UHGV virus genome: UHGV-1558646
Direction: 5' to 3' (one strand)
Length of the DNA stretch: 11,251 nt
From: a virus
In this document: one piece after another, positions 1,512 through 11,196 of the stretch
Position numbering within the stretch: the first letter of the stretch is position 1
Layout: the number at the start of each line of letters is the position of its first letter
Notes under the pieces: generated by a model
Seen by the model: the letters and a program-made list of their open reading frames with translations, nothing else
Told to the model about the DNA's origin: nothing
Databases searched by the model: none
Position numbers and translations under genes: made by a program

Positions 1512-1633
1512 TGGTTGCCTCCTTTACGCCACATCGCATTCAGATATTTGTTGTCATTAACAGAACCGAAACTCTTTCTCTTAAGCAATTCCTCTCTCGA
1601 TGGCATTGGCTTTACGCGTTGGCGAATAATCAT
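1508..1633 (-). CDS. Possible small ORF (41 aa), below the ORF-track size cutoff
   Basis: ATG at 1633..1631; translation [41 protein letters not shown]. Its TGA overlaps the GTG start of the ead gene (GTGA). No clear SD; fills an otherwise 160-bp gap in a tightly packed operon. Confidence 0.25.
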
Positions 1634-1671
1634 TTCTGCCGGAAGAATGCCGGGATTGCATGCAAGTCCTC

Positions 1672-1962
1672 TCATGATTTACTCTCCACGAACTGGTCAA
1701 TAGCCATGCTAAGTGATACACCTAAAGTCTTGATATGCTGCTGAATATCCTGTAGCGTCTGCGCCTGAGATAACAGGATTTCACGGTTGCATAACTCTTT
1801 GACCAGATGCTCAAACTTGCTGTAATAACCGATACGACTTAGTGTTTCTTTCCCTGCATTCTCACCTTCTTTGATAATTCCTCTTTCGCTAAGAATCAGA
1901 TCGTGTTTGGTTCCGGTAATAACGTATTTTCCGAGGTCGATGTTTAGCTTCATTGTTTTCAT
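1672..1962 (-). CDS. Hypothetical phage early protein (96 aa from ATG at 1962; ORF extends to 1995)
   Basis: ORF track 1672..1995. Internal ATG at 1962 has SD GAGGAA at 6-nt spacing. Earlier ATGs at 1995 and 1980 lack an SD and overlap the upstream gene. Confidence 0.5.
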
Positions 1963-1972
1963 TGTTAATTCC

Positions 1973-2269
1973 TCAGTCATTACTGATAGCGCCATAGCGT
2001 GAGCGGTAATTACGCAGGCGCGGGTCGATATATTCAGGGAAGTTGGTATATGTGGCTTTGCGGAATGGTCGGATTGATGTTTCGTTTATTCGGTCTTTTT
2101 CCTGTTTTTCTGCGAGTTGTATATCGCGTCGGTACATCCGTTCTGCTTTTGTTTCTGGTGTCAGAGCAAGAAACGCGTCGAAATTGTTTTTGATATTTTC
2201 CAGCACCTCCGCCTTGGAGCTACCGGAGCAGTTGCGCGGGTCATCCGCACCATACAGAGGCGCTGGCAT
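1973..2269 (-). CDS. Hypothetical phage early protein (98 aa)
   Basis: ORF track 1973..2269. ATG at 2269 with a weak SD (AAGG). Co-oriented, 23 nt downstream of the stop of the preceding gene. Confidence 0.5.
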   Translation of the reverse strand: MPAPLYGADDPRNCSGSSKAEVLENIKNNFDAFLALTPETKAERMYRRDIQLAEKQEKDRINETSIRPFRKATYTNFPEYIDPRLRNYRSRYGAISND

Positions 2270-2292
2270 AATGGGAGCCTTATTTTCAGTAA

Positions 2293-2880
2293 TCAGAAAG
2301 AAGGGTAATCGTTCTGGCTGTAACCATAATCATCTGCATGATTCTGGCTTACGTTTTTAGAGCGATTGTCTTTATCTTTGAGATGGGCAACCATGTTGGT
2401 GATAGTTTCTGGTTGCTTGCCTTCTGCCTTTTCTTTAAGGGTTTGACCTGTTTGTGCAATAAACGGGATGCGTATTTCCATCTGATAGCTGTCTGCACCA
2501 GTCCTTTTGTTTGTGGTTAATACTTTCTGGAGCACTAACCCGATTTTCTTTCCATGAAATTCAGGTGCAACAAATTTACTGGCGGAAACCATATGTTGCG
2601 TTAACTGCTTAATCCCAACACACCCCATCATGGCATGAACGACATTTGCACCAAACTTGTTTTCCGTTCCGTCATTTTTCTGAACACAAACGCTAAGATA
2701 CTGGATTTTACGTCCGTCGTCGGATTCGCCAGAAAACTCAATAAATTTGGCTCCTTTTTCTGATTGCTTTAGTTCTGCTTCAGTAATGGTAATGATATGA
2801 GCGCCAGTTTCGTTAATAAAACCACCTTGCCCTGCGGTCAGTGCTGCTTCTTCGTTATAAGTAAAAATCACGTTGCTCAT
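2293..2880 (-). CDS. Sak4 partner protein, putative ssDNA-binding/accessory protein (195 aa) with acidic-aromatic C-terminal tail ...DDYGYSQNDYPSF
   Basis: ATG at 2880 overlaps the TGA of the upstream Sak4-like gene (ATGA). C-terminal tail is reminiscent of the SSB tip (DDDIPF). Assignment is by position and tail, not by recognised OB-fold motifs. Confidence 0.55.
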   Translation of the reverse strand: MSNVIFTYNEEAALTAGQGGFINETGAHIITITEAELKQSEKGAKFIEFSGESDDGRKIQYLSVCVQKNDGTENKFGANVVHAMMGCVGIKQLTQHMVSASKFVAPEFHGKKIGLVLQKVLTTNKRTGADSYQMEIRIPFIAQTGQTLKEKAEGKQPETITNMVAHLKDKDNRSKNVSQNHADDYGYSQNDYPSF

Positions 2881-3557
2881 GCGGCGTTTTCCTTAATTTG
2901 ATGAACATTATTGATGCCGTAGTAATCACAAACAGTGGCATCGACGAAAGAGAGATCGTTATCAATCTCATTGGAATCAAACATTCCCATTGGGGATTTA
3001 ACAGTGTCTGCACCGTTGTTTTTTGTAGTGAAAAAGAACTGGTCATCACGGGTAAGGGTGCGAAGAACTATAGTAAACATGCCTTCGACAGTGATTTTCT
3101 CGTCCAGCATTTTGCCGATAGTTTTCATTTTCACACGCCCCATAGGGGTTTCTTCGGTGTGTGCAAGAAAATAGACTCTCAGGTCATCAGGTGCATCCTG
3201 TGCAGCCTTAATCACCTCCCATGCGTGGCGGCCTATCTCAGTGAATTTATCAAACGATTTTTCTTCTGAGCGGCGCATAAACTCATTGCTCATCACATAC
3301 TGGAAGTCATCAACAATAACGATTCTTTTCCCGTATTCGTGAGCACGCTTAATTACGGCAACTATTACGTCCCATTTGTCAGTGGTAACTACGGTTCCTT
3401 TTTTTGCTCTGGCATCCCATGCCAGCCATTCTTTTGATTTAAATGGTAGCGGCTTGCCTATTGGTTTTATAAGTATTGCTTCCTCTGGATTGATATTTCT
3501 CATGCTGGTTGATTTTCCGGTGCCAGATTCACCGAGTATTAATGTTGCAGTTCCCAT
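2877..3557 (-). CDS. Sak4-like core-only RecA-fold ATPase (AAA_24 family) recombination protein (226 aa)
   Basis: Walker A GESGTGKST at residues 8-16 and Walker B-like RIVIVDDF. Size and N-terminal P-loop are typical of phage Sak4/AAA_24. SD GAGGTGA before the ATG at 3557. Sits where lambda has the Red genes. Confidence 0.7.
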   Translation of the reverse strand: MGTATLILGESGTGKSTSMRNINPEEAILIKPIGKPLPFKSKEWLAWDARAKKGTVVTTDKWDVIVAVIKRAHEYGKRIVIVDDFQYVMSNEFMRRSEEKSFDKFTEIGRHAWEVIKAAQDAPDDLRVYFLAHTEETPMGRVKMKTIGKMLDEKITVEGMFTIVLRTLTRDDQFFFTTKNNGADTVKSPMGMFDSNEIDNDLSFVDATVCDYYGINNVHQIKENAA

Positions 3558-3565
3558 AATTCACC

Positions 3566-3754
3566 TCAGAATGGTAATTCGGATGAGGAGGAAAGAAACT
3601 CGCGCTCATTCATGCGCTCTCTTTGCGCCTGCCATAAGCAAAGTTGTTTCTTTGATTTATCTCCCGCTTTACGCCAGTAACGAGCCTCAGCAATGTGATA
3701 TTCTCTTTTTAATCGACTTAACTCTGGAGTTTTCGCCAGTTCTACCGGAATCAT
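3566..3754 (-). CDS. Small basic hypothetical protein (62 aa)
   Basis: ATG at 3754 overlaps the kil TGA (ATGA), with SD GGAGG 5 nt upstream. Translation: MIPVELAKTPELSRLKREYHIAEARYWRKAGDKSKKQLCLWQAQRERMNEREFLSSSSELPF. The ORF-track start at 3766 is in frame but lacks an SD. Confidence 0.5.
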   Translation of the reverse strand: MIPVELAKTPELSRLKREYHIAEARYWRKAGDKSKKQLCLWQAQRERMNEREFLSSSSELPF

Positions 3755-3864
3755 TTTGACCTCCATTTCCTGTAGGCTTCGACGGCCTCACGAAACATCT
3801 TTTCATCACCAATAAAAGTGGCGATAGTGAATTTAGTCTGGATAGCCATAAGTGTTTTATCCAT
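3751..3864 (-). CDS. kil: Kil-like host cell-division inhibitor peptide (37 aa)
   Basis: Translation MDKTLMAIQTKFTIATFIGDEKMFREAVEAYRKWRSK closely matches the lambda Kil N-terminus as I recall it (MDQTLMAIQTKFTIATFIGDEKMFREAVDAYKKW...). ATG at 3864 with SD AGGAG. Overlaps the end of cIII as in lambda. Confidence 0.6.
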   Translation of the reverse strand: MDKTLMAIQTKFTIATFIGDEKMFREAVEAYRKWRSK

Positions 3865-3997
3865 TTTTGGGAACTCCTGGCTGATTAAGTATGTCGATAA
3901 GGCGTTTCCATCCGTCACGTAATTTACGGGTGATTCGTTCAAGTAAAGATTCGGAAGGGCAGCCAGCAACAGGCCACCCTGCAATGGCATATTGCAT
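3857..3997 (-). CDS. cIII: cIII (46 aa), anti-FtsH regulator of cII stability
   Basis: Read by hand in a frame absent from the ORF track: MQYAIAGWPVAGCPSESLLERITRKLRDGWKRLIDILNQPGVPKNG. This matches lambda CIII (recalled) over its first 46 residues. SD TAAGGAG 6 nt upstream of the ATG at 3997. Confidence 0.65.
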   Translation of the reverse strand: MQYAIAGWPVAGCPSESLLERITRKLRDGWKRLIDILNQPGVPKNG

Positions 3998-4061
3998 GGT
4001 GTGCTCCTTATTTATTTACACATAACGAAAACGCCTCTAGTGAAGCGTTATTGGTATGCAT

Positions 4062-4087
4062 ATAAAAAAGCCCTCACATTGGAGGGC
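4062..4087 (-). terminator. Intrinsic terminator-like hairpin, leftward transcript (tL-like)
   Basis: Minus strand reads GCCCTC-caatgt-GAGGGC followed by TTTTTTATA. Stem at plus 4070..4075 and 4082..4087; T-run is the complement of 4064..4069. Confidence 0.5.
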
Positions 4088-4149
4088 AAAGAAGATTTCC
4101 AATAATCAGAGCAAGTCGGCTCCTGTTTAGTTACGAGCGACATTGCTCC

Positions 4150-4177
4150 GTGTATTCACTCGTTGGAATGAATACAC
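4150..4177. repeat. 9-bp inverted repeat GTGTATTCA-N10-TGAATACAC
   Basis: Perfect 9-bp arms at 4150..4158 and 4169..4177 in the intergenic region between the 207-aa gene and cIII. Possible protein-binding site or RNA hairpin. Confidence 0.4.
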
Positions 4178-4204
4178 AGTGCAGTGTTTATTCTGTTGTT
4201 TATG

Positions 4205-4231
4205 CCAAAAATAAAGGCCGATTATGCGGCC
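4205..4231 (-). terminator. Intrinsic terminator-like hairpin directly after the 207-aa gene
   Basis: Minus strand reads GGCCGCATAATCGGCC followed by TTTATTTTTGG. Stem overlaps the TAA stop at 4222..4224. Confidence 0.5.
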
Positions 4232-4845
4232 TCGGAAGGAAGTCCAATCATCTTATTCAAATCTTCTACCCGTAAAGCAGGAAGTGCTGTACTTGCTTTA
4301 TCTGCTTCTTTTGGTAGCAATTCTTTGCTTTCAGGCCAAACTTCAATAAGTCGCTTAACTGTTGTGACTGATTTCAAAGCAGCCCATACATTTGATTCGA
4401 TATCCTTTTTCTTGGCTTCAAGTTTTTGTTGCAATGCGCAGATTTCATCAAACCTTTTTGTTATTTCGTGTTCTGCGTCAAACATGCATTTATCTTTGAT
4501 CGGAGTAGGGAGCAATATATCTTTGCCGTTGCCGTCTTCCCCATATGAATGCCATCCAACCCTTCTGCCAGATACAGTCAGATAAATTGAAGTAGAACTA
4601 ACATCGTATGAGTAAAATGAACATCCCATCTTTCCAAGTTCTTCACTTATAGCTACCAACTTGGATGATAACTGATCCACTTCCTCAGTTTTCTTTTTAC
4701 CGCCAAACGCAATAACTCTGGCGTCAAGTGCAAGCTGGTTCTTTAACTTTGTTACTTCTTCAAGTTCAGTGAACACCCCGGACTTAATTAAAGCGTTACG
4801 AGCGATTTCCTCTTTCATTCTCGTAGTTAAGCGGATTGATGACAT
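4222..4845 (-). CDS. Hypothetical protein of unknown function (207 aa), AT-rich
   Basis: ATG at 4845 with SD GAGAGGAA 5 nt upstream. The ORF-track start at 4905 is a TTG overlapping the N stop. Translation starts MSSIRLTTRMKEEIARNALIKSG. No recognisable motif. Composition is visibly more AT-rich than the flanking genes. Confidence 0.6.
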   Translation of the reverse strand: MSSIRLTTRMKEEIARNALIKSGVFTELEEVTKLKNQLALDARVIAFGGKKKTEEVDQLSSKLVAISEELGKMGCSFYSYDVSSTSIYLTVSGRRVGWHSYGEDGNGKDILLPTPIKDKCMFDAEHEITKRFDEICALQQKLEAKKKDIESNVWAALKSVTTVKRLIEVWPESKELLPKEADKASTALPALRVEDLNKMIGLPSEAA

Positions 4846-4906
4846 ATTAATTCCTCTCAAATAAGTGGTTTGCTGCCTAATTTCATTTTCTGGCGACCAA
4901 CACAAG

Positions 4907-5290
4907 TCACCTCGCCGTCAGTTGTTTGTATTTCCGGTAGCCTGCCGCGTAAATGGCTACGTTTGGAAGACATACACCAGTTTCTGGTTGCTTATGTCCA
5001 AACTCATTCGCGTACACAATGGCTGCTCGCTCCAGATTGCGTCTGTATTCTTTCTGTTGCCAGATCACGTCCTGTGCCATGAACTTAATTGGCTTAGCGT
5101 CTTCTATGCGCTCAGGCGTTTCGTGAGTACCTTTAGCCTGAATCTGCGCTCTGCTTAGAGTAGGGCGGTGTAATACTTCTGAACTTATTGCTTCTTCGCG
5201 GGCCAGCACGCCGTTAGCTAATGCCTTTGCCTTTAAACGCTCACGACGACGAGAACGTGAATTGCCTTTGAACTGAGTTCTGCGTGTCAT
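4907..5290 (-). CDS. N: N-type transcription antitermination protein, P22 gene 24-like (127 aa)
   Basis: N-terminal arginine-rich motif GNSRSRRRERLKAKALA and C-terminus LPNVAIYAAGYRKYKQLTAR resemble P22 N as I recall it. ATG at 5290 with SD AGGAGG at 6-nt spacing; the ORF-track start at 5356 lacks an SD. nutL boxB lies upstream. Confidence 0.7.
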   Translation of the reverse strand: MTRRTQFKGNSRSRRRERLKAKALANGVLAREEAISSEVLHRPTLSRAQIQAKGTHETPERIEDAKPIKFMAQDVIWQQKEYRRNLERAAIVYANEFGHKQPETGVCLPNVAIYAAGYRKYKQLTAR

Positions 5291-5419
5291 ATGGAACCTC
5301 CTGATGAACTTTGGCGGTGAATACAGCCGGGCGACTAACTCCGGTCGCGTAATCATTGCAAAGCGCCTCCGCCGAGAAGGTTAGCTTCTGCATTCACCCC
5401 AAAGTTCACTTTGGTTATT

Positions 5420-5756: not shown

Positions 5757-6782
5757 TTACGGGCGAGTGATGGTTGATGCGTTTCCGTTTTCTATTACAC
5801 CTGCTCGTATCGTGTAGCTTCCCAAGATTTTTACTGTCCTGTTTTCTTTCATTGCATCAAACAGTATGGCGATCTCGTCTTTATCATCTATGAACGACGT
5901 GTCCACCGAAACAGGGAAACTGTCTTCACTAGATGGTTCGCGGCAGCTTAGGGTTATCTTTTCCGCAGTACGCTTGATTCCATCAATGACTAATTCAAGG
6001 TTTCTTTCTTCTTTTTTTGCTTTTTCGATAGGGTTCTTGATTAGTTCGTGGATTTCTTTGTTAGACAGTTCAACTGTGCTTGCGCCTGATATGACAATTT
6101 TGTCAGCATCAGACGCGCCTTTTAATACCCCTGTATACGCTTTTGCAGTATGCTCTTGAATCCCTTCGGCGCGCTCTACTGCATCTATGCCCGCTTTAGC
6201 TCTAATCGCCTCAAGCATTCCGTCCCTTAATATCGTCATGCGCTCGTTTTCTGATTTAATCTTGGCTTCTTCGAGCTTTGTTTCTTCTTGCTTGACTTCT
6301 ACTTCGGCTTTTTTCTCTAAGTATGATGTACCAACCCATGCACCGCCTATAACGGTGACAGCAAACAAGAAGCATAATGTTTTTTGGCTAGGACTCATAC
6401 CGTGTGTTACCTTCTCAAAGGCTTTACCGAATGCTTCAAAAAGCTCTGTTAATGCAGCAAGTATATCAGTACAACCTTCATTAATGGTAAAGATGATCTC
6501 TGCTTCCTCTTTATCTTTACCAGTTAACCTTTGAAGGTTGTCAGTTTTATATTTTATTAGTGTGAAAACTTTATAAATTTCAGTCTGAAATTCGCATAAA
6601 CCCTGAGCTAGAGGAGATGGAAGCGTTCCGTTGTAGCGAGAAGGATCACCATAAATCTTAAAATTCACATTATTGAAGAGGTCTAACTTGATCCTGTCGA
6701 TAGTGATCTCTTCGCCACCATCTAACCTTGCAAACAAAGATTCAATGTCGTCCAGACTTGAAACATTAATAATATCTTTCAT
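5757..6782 (-). CDS. Unknown membrane-anchored coiled-coil protein (341 aa) in the rexAB-equivalent slot; candidate exclusion/abortive-infection gene
   Basis: ORF track 5757..6782. ATG at 6782 with SD GAAGGTG. One predicted TM helix (TLCFLFAVTVIGGAWVGTSYL, about residues 136-156) followed by a K/E-rich coiled-coil. AT-rich relative to the repressor and replication genes. 80 bp downstream of the repressor stop on the same strand. Confidence 0.7.
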   Translation of the reverse strand: MKDIINVSSLDDIESLFARLDGGEEITIDRIKLDLFNNVNFKIYGDPSRYNGTLPSPLAQGLCEFQTEIYKVFTLIKYKTDNLQRLTGKDKEEAEIIFTINEGCTDILAALTELFEAFGKAFEKVTHGMSPSQKTLCFLFAVTVIGGAWVGTSYLEKKAEVEVKQEETKLEEAKIKSENERMTILRDGMLEAIRAKAGIDAVERAEGIQEHTAKAYTGVLKGASDADKIVISGASTVELSNKEIHELIKNPIEKAKKEERNLELVIDGIKRTAEKITLSCREPSSEDSFPVSVDTSFIDDKDEIAILFDAMKENRTVKILGSYTIRAGVIENGNASTITRP

Positions 6783-9316: not shown

Positions 9317-11196
9317 TGACTCCAAGTGAACTGAGCGACCTGCTTTGGGCGCAGGTTGACAGGGTGGCTCCGCACCTGTTGCCAAACGGCAAGAAAGAGG
9401 GGCATGAGTGGGTTGCCGGTAACGTTAACGGTGACAAGGGAAACAGCCTTAAGGTCAACCTTAGCGGCAAGAAAAAATGGGCTGATTTCGCTGAGGGAGA
9501 CGGCGGTGACATGCTTGATTTGTGGATGGCATGTCGTGGAATTAACCTGCATCAGGCTATGCAGGAAGCGAAAGCATTTCTCGGTATCAAGGATGACGAT
9601 CACCATTTCGATGCCAGACGTGAGAAGAAATTCTCCAGACCTGATCGCAAGAAAATCGCCAGTTACGTTACCAGAACAGAATCCCATCTTGAGTACCTGC
9701 AATCGCGTGGCATATCGCCAGAAGTCGTAAAGCGCTACGAGGTTGTCAGCGGCAAGGTGTGGAATGGAGAGCGGGAACTGGATGCTCTGGTGCTTCCGTA
9801 CAAACGCGATGGTGAGTTGTTGCAGGTCAAGCGAATCAGCACTGAGCGCCCGGACGGGAAGAAAGTCATTATGGCAGAAGGTGATTGCGAACCTTGTCTG
9901 TTCGGATGGCAGGCTCTGGACGCTGGCGTGAGGGCGGTTGTACTTTGCGAAGGCGAAATTGATTGTATGAGCTATGCGCAATACGGCATCTCGGCGTTAT
10001 CCGTGCCGTTTGGTGGCGGGAAAGGCGCTAAGCAGCAGTGGATTGAGTTTGAGTATCACAACCTCGACAGGTTTGAGGAAATATTCATCTCGATGGATGT
10101 TGATGATGTTGGTCGTGAAGCCGCAAGGGAAATCGCAAGCCGACTCGGTGAACATCGTTGCCGTCTTGTTACTCTGCCGTACAAAGACATCAACGAATGC
10201 CTGATGAACGGTGTTACCGAGGATGAAATCTGGCAGTACATCGGCACGGCATCCTACTTCGATCCTGAAGAACTCTACAGCGCGCGAGAGTTTTACCAGG
10301 ACACTATCAACGCTTTCTACGGCAAGCAGCAGTATCTGTTTAATCCACCGTGGGAATCTCTGGCAGATAAATTCCAGTTCCGTGAGGCCGAGTTGACGCT
10401 GGTCAATGGTGTGAACGGTCACGGAAAAACGGAGGTTGTCGGGCATATGGCACTTGAGGCAATGCGTCAGGGTGTGAAGACGTGCATCGCGTCACTTGAG
10501 CTGAAGCCTGGTATTCTCCTTAAGCGCCTTACCCGTCAGGCGACGTGCTGCAAGATGCCGCCAGTGCTGGAAATTGACTCTGCATTTAAATTTTATGACG
10601 AAAGACTTTGGGTGTTTGGCCTGACCGGAACGGCGAAAGCCGACAGGCTGATCGAAATATTCGACTACGCTCGCCGCCGATACGGTATCCAGTTATTCAT
10701 CATCGACAGCCTGATGAAATGTGGCATAGGCGACGATGACTATAACGGGCAGAAGGCGTTTGTTGACTCGATTTGCGACTTCAAAAACAAAACAAACTCC
10801 CACGTCATTCTCGTTACTCACTCGCGAAAAGGAGACAGCGAAGAAAAACCAACCGGGAAAATGGACGTAAAAGGCTCTGGAGCGATAACAGACCTGACAG
10901 ACAACCTTTTTATCATCTGGCGTAACAAGGCTCGCGAGAGAGCGTTACAGAGAGTTCAAAGCGGTGAACAGATGTCAGAGAAGGACGAACAGCTACTGGT
11001 GTCTCCGGCATCTGTTTTGTTGCTTGAAAAACAACGTAACGGTGAAGGTTGGGAAGGTGGTATCCCGTTGTTCCTTGACGAGCAATCGCACCAGTTCCTG
11101 CAACTTGAATCAGGATCTCCATATAGCTACATCGCCAATATGCCGAAATCGGAATATGACGAGGCGTGGAGACAGGAAAACGTGACGGAGTATTAA
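9316..11196 (+). CDS. Bifunctional DNA primase (TOPRIM) / RecA-fold DnaB-like replicative helicase (626 aa)
   Basis: TOPRIM motifs VVLCEGEIDCMSYAQ (catalytic Glu) and ISMDVDDVGREA (DxD). Helicase Walker A NGVNGHGKTEV and Walker B LFIIDSLMK. SD GAGGT before the ATG at 9316. Confidence 0.85.
   Translation: MTPSELSDLLWAQVDRVAPHLLPNGKKEGHEWVAGNVNGDKGNSLKVNLSGKKKWADFAEGDGGDMLDLWMACRGINLHQAMQEAKAFLGIKDDDHHFDARREKKFSRPDRKKIASYVTRTESHLEYLQSRGISPEVVKRYEVVSGKVWNGERELDALVLPYKRDGELLQVKRISTERPDGKKVIMAEGDCEPCLFGWQALDAGVRAVVLCEGEIDCMSYAQYGISALSVPFGGGKGAKQQWIEFEYHNLDRFEEIFISMDVDDVGREAAREIASRLGEHRCRLVTLPYKDINECLMNGVTEDEIWQYIGTASYFDPEELYSAREFYQDTINAFYGKQQYLFNPPWESLADKFQFREAELTLVNGVNGHGKTEVVGHMALEAMRQGVKTCIASLELKPGILLKRLTRQATCCKMPPVLEIDSAFKFYDERLWVFGLTGTAKADRLIEIFDYARRRYGIQLFIIDSLMKCGIGDDDYNGQKAFVDSICDFKNKTNSHVILVTHSRKGDSEEKPTGKMDVKGSGAITDLTDNLFIIWRNKARERALQRVQSGEQMSEKDEQLLVSPASVLLLEKQRNGEGWEGGIPLFLDEQSHQFLQLESGSPYSYIANMPKSEYDEAWRQENVTEY

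Follow-up and report, generated by a model that had tools for sequence, protein, structure and literature searches.

The 62-aa open reading frame (ORF) between kil and sak4 in the window, which is the whole stretch of phage DNA that we analyzed (11,251 nucleotides), is a real and conserved gene, hkaM, and it is translationally coupled to whichever annealase gene follows it. From the sequences of its family we tentatively propose that the product, HkaM, may be a small basic helical-hairpin accessory of annealase modules that mimics the C-terminal tip of SSB and serves as a decoy on the host side. HkaM stands, conserved, at the head of modules whose annealases come from three unrelated families, and it likely has a general accessory function in recombination by annealases.

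Position and operon context of hkaM

Read directly from the sequence, hkaM lies on the minus strand, with its ATG at 3754-3752 and its TGA stop at 3568-3566, and encodes the product MIPVELAKTPELSRLKREYHIAEARYWRKAGDKSKKQLCLWQAQRERMNEREFLSSSSELPF. The first-pass annotation of this DNA had named no strand, but the gene that it described at 3566-3754 proved to be real in each particular: the product has 62 aa, the TGA stop of kil (3753-3751) overlaps the hkaM ATG to give ATGA, and a GGAGG Shine-Dalgarno (SD) sequence precedes the start (Table 1). Its description of the protein as Arg/Lys-rich was also fair, with 13 Lys/Arg against 9 Asp/Glu residues and a net charge of +4 in the window copy, and the profile matches listed in Table 1 confirmed its naming of the neighbors as kil and Sak4. 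An in-frame ATG at 3766, which would give a protein of 66 aa, was rejected as the start. Because no usable SD precedes it and the distant homologues begin MIPV, we take 62 aa as the correct length.

All genes of the operon are on the minus strand, in the order cIII with its thermoregulator, kil, hkaM, sak4, ssb, and abc2. The sak4 gene begins 8 nt past the hkaM stop codon, which itself forms part of the sak4 SD (TGAGGTGAATTATG; TGAGGTGAATT-ATG). No Rfam match fell on hkaM, and site scans found no promoter-like or terminator-like site inside it. An antisense ORF of 127 aa at 3376-3759 on the plus strand was dismissed as spurious; selection acts on the minus-strand frame.

Table 1. Features of the hkaM region, in window coordinates
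Feature	Position	Strand	Basis
cIII thermoregulator RNA element	3952..4010	-	Rfam RF01804 Lambda_thermo, 88.5 bits, E 5e-21; marks the pL operon upstream
cIII, 46 aa	3857..3997	-	ORF list; gene order as in HK620 annotation
kil, 37 aa	3751..3864	-	Pfam Lambda_Kil 8.4e-22; PHROG 3924 1.7e-26
hkaM Shine-Dalgarno GGAGG	3760..3764	-	5 nt before ATG; read directly from sequence
hkaM, 62-aa protein plus stop	3566..3754	-	PHROG 1723 7.7e-33; purifying selection
HkaM predicted helix 1, residues 10-30, with invariant A24 and R28; turn residue G31 directly after	3665..3727	-	AlphaFold2 pLDDT 87-95
HkaM predicted helix 2, residues 33-49, basic, with invariant E46	3608..3658	-	AlphaFold2 model; family alignment
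HkaM predicted flexible C-terminal tail, residues 50-62: EFL motif, hypervariable Ser-rich linker (55-58), tip ELPF-COOH	3569..3607	-	pLDDT about 50; linker variation
HkaM tip E59-L60-P61-F62-COOH, candidate SSB C-terminal tip mimic	3569..3580	-	Pro-Phe invariant in 52/52; synonymous codon variation
Junction TGA-GGTGAATT	3558..3568	-	hkaM stop inside annealase SD; conserved across module types
sak4 (hkaL), RecA-like single-strand annealing protein, 226 aa	2877..3557	-	PHROG 2872 3e-108; Pfam AAA_24; Hutinet 2018
Phage SSB (hkaK, 'SSB-2'), 195 aa	2293..2880	-	PHROG 743 7e-66; Hutinet 2018; tail here ...NDYPSF
abc2 (hkaJ), P22-type RecBCD modifier, 98 aa	1973..2269	-	Pfam Anti-RecBCD_p2 1.1e-39; PHROG 656 1.8e-48

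Identity and distribution of the family

By sequence identity, the window ORF is hkaM of phage HK620. The two copies are 96.8% identical in both nucleotides and amino acids (HK620 HkaM, NP_112046), and the two residues that differ fall within and close to the variable linker. Residues 2-59 match the PHROG 1723 profile over positions 1-58 of 58 (E 7.7e-33), and the members of this PHROG include HK620 HkaM, HK97 gp42, Sf6 gp29, ST64T Orf66, ES18 gp50, and epsilon34 gp37. The HK620-type gene is also carried by HK629, JEP4, and many Stx1a/Stx2a-converting phages. At a nucleotide identity of at least 95%, it was present in 229 of 5426 complete E. coli genomes; the lack of conservation in related prophages that would have spoken against the ORF is thus not what we found.

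When 1.84 billion representatives were searched exhaustively with HMMER, only 21 matches came up at E <= 0.001, nearly all of them small family members, truncated copies, or fusions in decayed prophages, with a few of the weakest covering short stretches of longer proteins; none of the 21 provided a link to a characterized family. The HkaM family is a narrow and fast-evolving one of enterobacterial temperate phages. Neither the protein nor its profile matched any Pfam or NCBIfam family or any PDB sequence, and for this reason the 'recombinase' label that PHROG gives to family 1723, and that RefSeq has propagated, is without support. We rejected that label, as HkaM carries no recombinase or annealase domain (Rad52, ERF, RecT, or RecA-like), is too small, and folds in the model as a generic helical hairpin.

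HkaM has been treated as an orphan of unknown function, to which P22 Arf is not homologous (Hutinet et al. 2018, PMC5928155). A 2025 survey of lambdoid Rec modules contains no discussion of HkaM, and our literature search found no functional work on HK97 gp42, ES18 gp50, or phrog_1723. The gene was already catalogued; its linkage to annealase genes irrespective of their family and its SSB-like tip are new, as far as the searched literature shows.

Evidence for a protein-coding gene

Among HK620-type copies of hkaM, dN/dS was 0.05-0.25. Between the HK620 (E. coli) type and the Salmonella type, dN was about 0.22 and synonymous sites were saturated. Homologues reach down to 34% identity with their length and motifs conserved. 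Taken from these comparisons, hkaM is a real gene under purifying selection. The gene is short and belongs to no Pfam or NCBIfam family, as might be expected of a chance ORF without expression, yet that reading is vanishingly improbable given the purifying selection, the good SD, the retention of length and motifs to 34% identity, and the occurrence of the ORF in hundreds of prophages. The evolutionary evidence has already refuted it.

Linkage to annealase genes of three unrelated families

We compared the gene neighborhood across 175 related loci drawn from annotated phages, exact-protein look-ups, and IMG/VR and GTDB scans, of which the scan of genome contigs contributed only 2. The scans used the closer alignment and single divergent members, the broad family alignment having no conserved stretch. 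In this sample, which is redundant and holds many near-identical prophages, an annealase gene was the adjacent downstream ORF in 168 of the 170 loci with a typed downstream gene. These annealases comprised 79 of Rad52_Rad22 type, 17 ERF (PF04404), 69 Sak4 of HK620 type, and 3 long AAA_24 Sak4; the 235-aa 'Erf' of ST64T, L, ES18, and Sf6 actually matches PF04098 and was counted as Rad52_Rad22-type. Of the two remaining loci, one has an HNH gene inserted before ERF and the other a decayed ERF remnant at a deletion junction. The spacer from the hkaM stop to the annealase start was 7-12 nt in sequences read directly, and 8 nt in most loci; scripted gap values (1-12 nt) vary with the start codon chosen.

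The gene upstream of hkaM was far less constant, being kil, DUF551, or one of several unknown genes of 116-331 aa, so that the linkage of hkaM is to the annealase and not to kil. Further downstream, abc2 and the phage ssb gene were frequent but not universal partners, and some modules with HkaM, such as those of ST64T and L, have no phage SSB.

Identical HkaM proteins were found beside different annealases. For the HK620 type, the neighbor was Sak4 in 69 loci and a Rad52-type annealase in 13, and for the Buttiauxella-type protein it was either ERF or the long Sak4. This argues against a co-adapted contact with any one annealase, and hence against a narrow role as a Sak4 accessory. Such a role had been one of two functions suggested in the first-pass annotation, together with a co-occurrence analysis with Sak4. 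The adjacency to an annealase on which the idea drew is real, but there is no specificity for Sak4: the family precedes annealases of three unrelated families, and in oligonucleotide recombineering Sak4 with SSB alone matched the whole module (Hutinet et al. 2018, PMC5928155).

A predicted basic helical hairpin with a flexible tail

The AlphaFold2 model of HkaM, a single chain built on an 8-sequence alignment, consists of two helices (pLDDT 83-95) with a turn at the invariant G31, followed by a tail with a pLDDT of about 50. Six positions, A24, R28, G31, E46, P61, and F62, are invariant across 19 members whose identity reaches as low as 34%. The family signature, a hairpin motif A..[YF][WY]R..G at the turn together with a C-terminal Pro-Phe, is present in the window copy. 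Among 52 distinct members, the body of the protein is basic (mean net charge +6.3, 23% Lys/Arg) and the last nine residues contain 2.8% Lys/Arg. A Foldseek comparison of the model with PDB and BFVD returned generic helical hairpins only, none at E <= 0.001, and no OB-fold ssDNA-binding domain was found in the 62-aa two-helix model, which has no PF00436 match. Structure prediction, another suggestion made when the ORF was first described, thus yielded a basic hairpin of two helices and a tail of low confidence, though no informative structural neighbor.

The C-terminal tip and its overlap with the annealase SD

An example of an HkaM tail peptide is NEREFLSSPSELPF. The linker of the tail, residues 55-58, is hypervariable in the family and differs in length too; among otherwise identical HK620-type copies it reads SSPS, SVPS, SAPS, SCPS, SSSS, or SSQS, with ELPF kept throughout. 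The ending [D/E]-hydrophobic-Pro-Phe-COOH is the only invariant sequence feature of HkaM outside the hairpin. All 52 distinct members have Pro at position -2 and Phe at -1, a hydrophobic residue (L, I, M, P, C, A, or T) occupies -3, and 40 members carry Asp or Glu at -4. Most tips have no more than one or two acidic residues, and the tail averages a net charge of -1. The most distant members, ending in GPCPF, GPAPF, or GGNCPF, have no acidic tip residues.

As a control for the frequency of such endings, 265 of the 11255 mechanical ORFs in all loci end in Pro-Phe, made up of HkaM-family members, phage SSBs (FDDxIPF, NDYPPF), and roughly six ORFs taken to be spurious. In these loci, therefore, Pro-Phe ends belong essentially to SSBs and HkaM. 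The SSB tips (DDDIPF in E. coli SSB-Ct, NDYPPF in the HK620 SSB, and FDD(x)DIPF in prophage SSBs) have the same hydrophobic-Pro-Phe-COOH end as HkaM, and in both proteins a flexible, variable linker carries this end; acidic residues precede it in SSB, and one or two do so in most HkaM members. They differ in that SSB has an OB fold, which HkaM lacks, and in that the HkaM tip has fewer acidic residues than DDD. The beta-clamp-binding motif, QL[SD]LF, was considered as another identity for the tail and rejected by inspection, as the tail has no Gln and has Pro where Leu is required.

The codons of the tip run into the start of the next gene. The junction CC[A/G] TTC TGA GGTGA is near-invariant across module types; it is the annealase SD and probably also a module-boundary (mosaic) sequence. 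The position of the hkaM stop codon within the annealase SD indicates that the two genes are translationally coupled. Because the last codons of hkaM overlap this nucleotide-conserved junction, and because the Phe codon is TTC in 45 of 48 cases, part of the invariance of Pro-Phe does not arise at the protein level.

Taken further, the conservation of Pro-Phe could be mainly a by-product of nucleotide constraint, with HkaM working only through its basic hairpin, for instance in nucleic-acid binding or regulation, or with the ORF serving chiefly as a leader for translational coupling. The near-invariant junction, the stop codon inside the SD, the predominance of TTC, and the 8-nt spacer of most loci are what this account would predict. 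We nevertheless think it rather unlikely, since Pro-Phe is kept in loci with a TAA stop, a different spacer, or a TTT codon (L009, L014, L015, L104, and L098). Codon usage at the tip is also varied, with three Pro codons (CCA 37, CCG 10, and CCT 2) and five different codons for Leu at position -3, and the whole ORF is under purifying selection, including a tail that is poor in Lys/Arg and enriched in Asp/Glu at position -4. In the variation of the Pro and Leu codons, and in the persistence of Pro-Phe at deviant junctions, protein-level selection on the tip is visible.

HkaM as a candidate mimic of the SSB tip

The SSB tip DDDIPF is described in PMC5872125 and PMC10164576 as a docking site for many genome-maintenance proteins. 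SSB tails matter to annealases as well: the binding of Sak4 to SSB-coated ssDNA requires the SSB tail NDYPPF (PMC5928155), and RecT-type annealases recognize the last 7 residues of SSB (bioRxiv 2020.04.14.041095). In the mechanism that we propose, the flexible tail of HkaM, with its [D/E]-hydrophobic-Pro-Phe-COOH end, would imitate this tip and dock into an SSB-tip-binding pocket. Because identical HkaM serves with unrelated annealases, its target is most likely something constant, and we favor one on the host side. The owner of the pocket would accordingly be the same from module to module, and the best candidate would be a host SSB-interacting exonuclease, helicase, or restart factor. As a decoy, HkaM would keep this enzyme off ssDNA recombination intermediates, or redirect it, and in either case favor the phage annealase. 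Extended to the family as a whole, HkaM proteins, of about 60 residues, would be stand-alone, phage-encoded mimics of the SSB C-terminal tip that compete for, or exploit, the pockets of the host SSB interactome and so clear the way for the annealase; this broader statement is possible but somewhat doubtful. No comparable stand-alone SSB-tip decoy was found in the literature searched.

Some observations sit uneasily with SSB-tip mimicry. HkaM offers one or two acidic residues against the three of DDDIPF, and a free decoy with peptide-like affinity would face competition from thousands of SSB tails. The hairpin fold is generic, part of the tip invariance lies at the nucleotide level, and hkaM had no effect on Sak4/SSB oligonucleotide recombineering. 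In that work, Sak4 and SSB alone performed as did the whole module including hkaM, so that HkaM neither aided nor impaired the reaction (Hutinet et al. 2018, PMC5928155).

The same features of the tail could be read as those of a loader or adaptor for the annealase, a minimal 'SSB tail in trans' whose Pro-Phe end binds the phage annealase at its SSB-tail site and whose hairpin binds DNA or SSB, so that HkaM would recruit or regulate the annealase. The need of Sak4 for an SSB tail and the reading of SSB tails by RecT-type annealases, both described above, speak for this. The adjacency and translational coupling of hkaM to the annealase gene also favor an adaptor, as does the existence of modules with HkaM that have no phage SSB. 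It seems unlikely all the same, as identical HkaM pairs with unrelated folds (RecA-like Sak4 on the one hand and Rad52 or ERF on the other) with no sign of co-adaptation, and as the whole HK620 module with hkaM was equal to Sak4 and SSB alone in recombineering.

Recombineering is built on phage annealase modules, and the host range of these modules is limited by SSB-tail compatibility. If HkaM is indeed an SSB-tip mimic, it would represent a new viral way to rewire the bacterial SSB hub, and it could account in part for the action of accessory recombination functions like P22 Arf. HkaM could also then serve as a portable add-on for recombineering or as a natural peptide-like inhibitor of the interactions between SSB and its partners, which are pursued as antibacterial targets.

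Comparison with lambda Gam, P22 Arf, and HK75 Gp33

On the lambda map, gam is the first gene after kil and lies ahead of the annealase gene, and its product, an acidic dimer that mimics DNA, blocks RecBCD. From this position the first-pass annotation had drawn its other suggestion, that the ORF might encode an alternative host-nuclease inhibitor. The positional logic was correct, in that hkaM has the slot of lambda gam at the head of the recombination module. Gam and HkaM nevertheless show no resemblance in sequence or family membership (no Pfam, NCBIfam, or PDB-sequence match), and whereas Gam is acidic, HkaM is basic (net +4, with the family body averaging +6.3) and has no acidic DNA-mimic character. 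In addition, the RecBCD modifier Abc2 is already encoded in the operon, co-occurring with HkaM in the window and in many, indeed most, related modules, with exceptions. That HkaM inhibits or modifies RecBCD, or some other nuclease of the host, in the manner of Gam, contacting it directly with the hairpin and without mimicking the SSB tip, is thus very unlikely even for an early pL gene adjoining kil. Both of the specific functions first suggested for this ORF, a Gam-like inhibitor and a Sak4 accessory, are unlikely.

P22 Arf (accessory recombination function, PHROG 2445) offers a second comparison. It shares its slot with HkaM, between kil and the annealase gene in the pL operon, and it is likewise small; it is part of the Rec module and has been reported to aid recombination without being essential. 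Arf, however, has 47 aa, is strongly acidic, and has no Pro-Phe end, whereas HkaM has 62 aa, is basic, and ends in Pro-Phe. Homology between the two was rejected, with an hhalign probability of 0.25% and separate PHROGs.

One further result appeared to favor nuclease inhibition by a gene in this slot. In a 2026 preprint, the ORF annotated in HK75 between kil and the annealase gene, 'Gp33', is reported to trigger the P2 OLD defense as RecBCD inhibitors do (bioRxiv 10.64898/2026.07.10.737580). The Gp33 of HK75 and HK446, to which Sf6 gp30 and HK97 gp42.1 correspond, has in common with HkaM both this interval and a 'recombinase' label. It belongs, however, to a different family, PHROG 2123 (4e-40), and is acidic with an SDEEFI motif. 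In HK75, an unannotated 56-aa ORF of the HkaM family runs in another frame across the 3' half of the Gp33 gene; this ORF ends in FLGPCPF (PHROG 1723, 4.5e-34; hhalign 99.3%) and has a canonical junction with the annealase gene, CCA TTC TGA GGTGAATT ATG. The window contains no homologue of Gp33: its HkaM matches only PHROG 1723, and kil and hkaM overlap directly. Because Gp33 is of a different family and has no homologue in the window, the OLD result is not transferable to HkaM.

The same preprint describes the early-left recombination region as a hotspot for anti-defense genes and defense triggers (bioRxiv 10.64898/2026.07.10.737580), and HkaM could be an anti-defense protein or defense trigger with no role in recombination. 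Its small size, its fast evolution outside a few motifs, and its confinement to enterobacterial temperate phages would suit such a protein. Strict adjacency and coupling to an annealase across mosaic contexts would be unexpected, though, as anti-defense genes usually move independently, and we regard this possibility as quite improbable.

Two points of annotation follow for users of these databases, namely the unsupported 'recombinase' label and the overlap of the OLD-trigger ORF Gp33 of HK75 with an unannotated gene of the HkaM family. The overlap of a Gp33-type gene with an HkaM-family gene is found in HK75, Sf6, and others, and the Sf6 annotation contains both, namely gp30 and gp29, the counterparts of HK97 gp42.1 and gp42. 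In the divergence between HK75 and Sf6, the HkaM frame keeps its pattern and the Gp33 frame changes its end.

Composition of the HkaM-associated recombination modules

We examined the C-terminal ends of the single-strand-DNA-binding proteins (SSBs) encoded beside HkaM, the small basic protein of PHROG 1723. Among phage SSBs of the related loci, the terminal six residues read NDYPPF in 60 cases and NDYPAF in 7, while NDYPSF, the form present in the window, occurred in only 2. The penultimate proline of the SSB tail is the position altered by the E. coli ssb-113 allele. Two prophage loci, L008 and L059, encode bacterial-type SSBs whose canonical DDDIPF tip lies internally: 15 more residues (APVTLPFPRHAIH..) extend the protein beyond it and would mask it. 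The six residues NDYPPF have been shown to be essential for stimulation of Sak4 (PMC5928155).

Coordinates of features in the window and in related loci
Locus	Position	Strand	Feature	Remarks
Window	2296-2313	-	Phage SSB, last six codons	NDYPSF
Window	3952-4010	-	Lambda cIII thermoregulator RNA element	Overlaps cIII start; Rfam RF01804, 88.5 bits
Window	4222-4905	-	ORF, 227 aa	Between repressor region and cIII
Window	4907-5356	-	ORF, 149 aa	Between repressor region and cIII
Window	5757-6782	-	ORF, 341 aa	Between repressor region and cIII
L003	3198-3905		ST64T orf-235	Annotated "Erf-like"
L008	5284-5808		Prophage bacterial-type SSB	DDDIPF internal
L015 (Phytobacter ursingii)	3801-3989		Second small ORF, 62 aa	C-terminus ...IEFTNCPF; directly upstream of hkaM homologue
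L059	4782-5289		Prophage bacterial-type SSB	DDDIPF internal
L176 (HK75, NC_016160)	10136-10306	-	Unannotated HkaM-family ORF, 56 aa	Different frame from gp33
L176 (HK75, NC_016160)	10212-10382	-	Annotated gp33	

L059 carries two recombination modules in tandem on a single viral contig, each headed by an HkaM-family gene: a kil-hkaM-sak4-ssb-abc2 fragment (1534-3008) and a kil-like-gp33-like-hkaM-like-Rad52-type annealase-SSB module (3895-5289). The small Phytobacter ORF may encode a tandem paralogue that has diverged from HkaM. P0009, of 87 aa, and P0019, of 109 aa, are in-frame deletion fusions in which the HkaM N-terminus runs on into Sak4 or the C-terminal part of Abc2; both evidently stem from decayed prophage recombination modules.

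Annotation of neighboring genes

In PHROG-derived RefSeq annotation, PHROG 1723 and PHROG 2123, small-protein families with no relation to each other, share the label "recombinase" (entries HK620p13, HK75_33, Sf6p29/p30, and ES18 gp50), which has domain or experimental support in neither. In HK75, the HkaM-family ORF overlaps the 3′ half of gp33; in Sf6 (L177), both overlapping ORFs are annotated (gp29 and gp30; 2501-2659 and 2580-2750). HK75 gp33 is an OLD trigger according to a 2026 preprint (bioRxiv 10.64898/2026.07.10.737580), although either of the overlapping products may account for this phenotype.

The 235-aa "Erf-like" proteins of ST64T (orf-235), ES18 (gp49, L004), and Sf6 (gp28, L177) have a Rad52_Rad22 (PF04098) N-terminal domain and share with true ERF-family annealases only a C-terminal domain of ~55 residues. 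This looks like shuffling of a C-terminal module shared by the two groups.

None of the three sizeable window ORFs (227, 149 and 341 aa) had an NCBIfam match; they fill the variable region that in HK620 holds hkaP/hkaQ/N.
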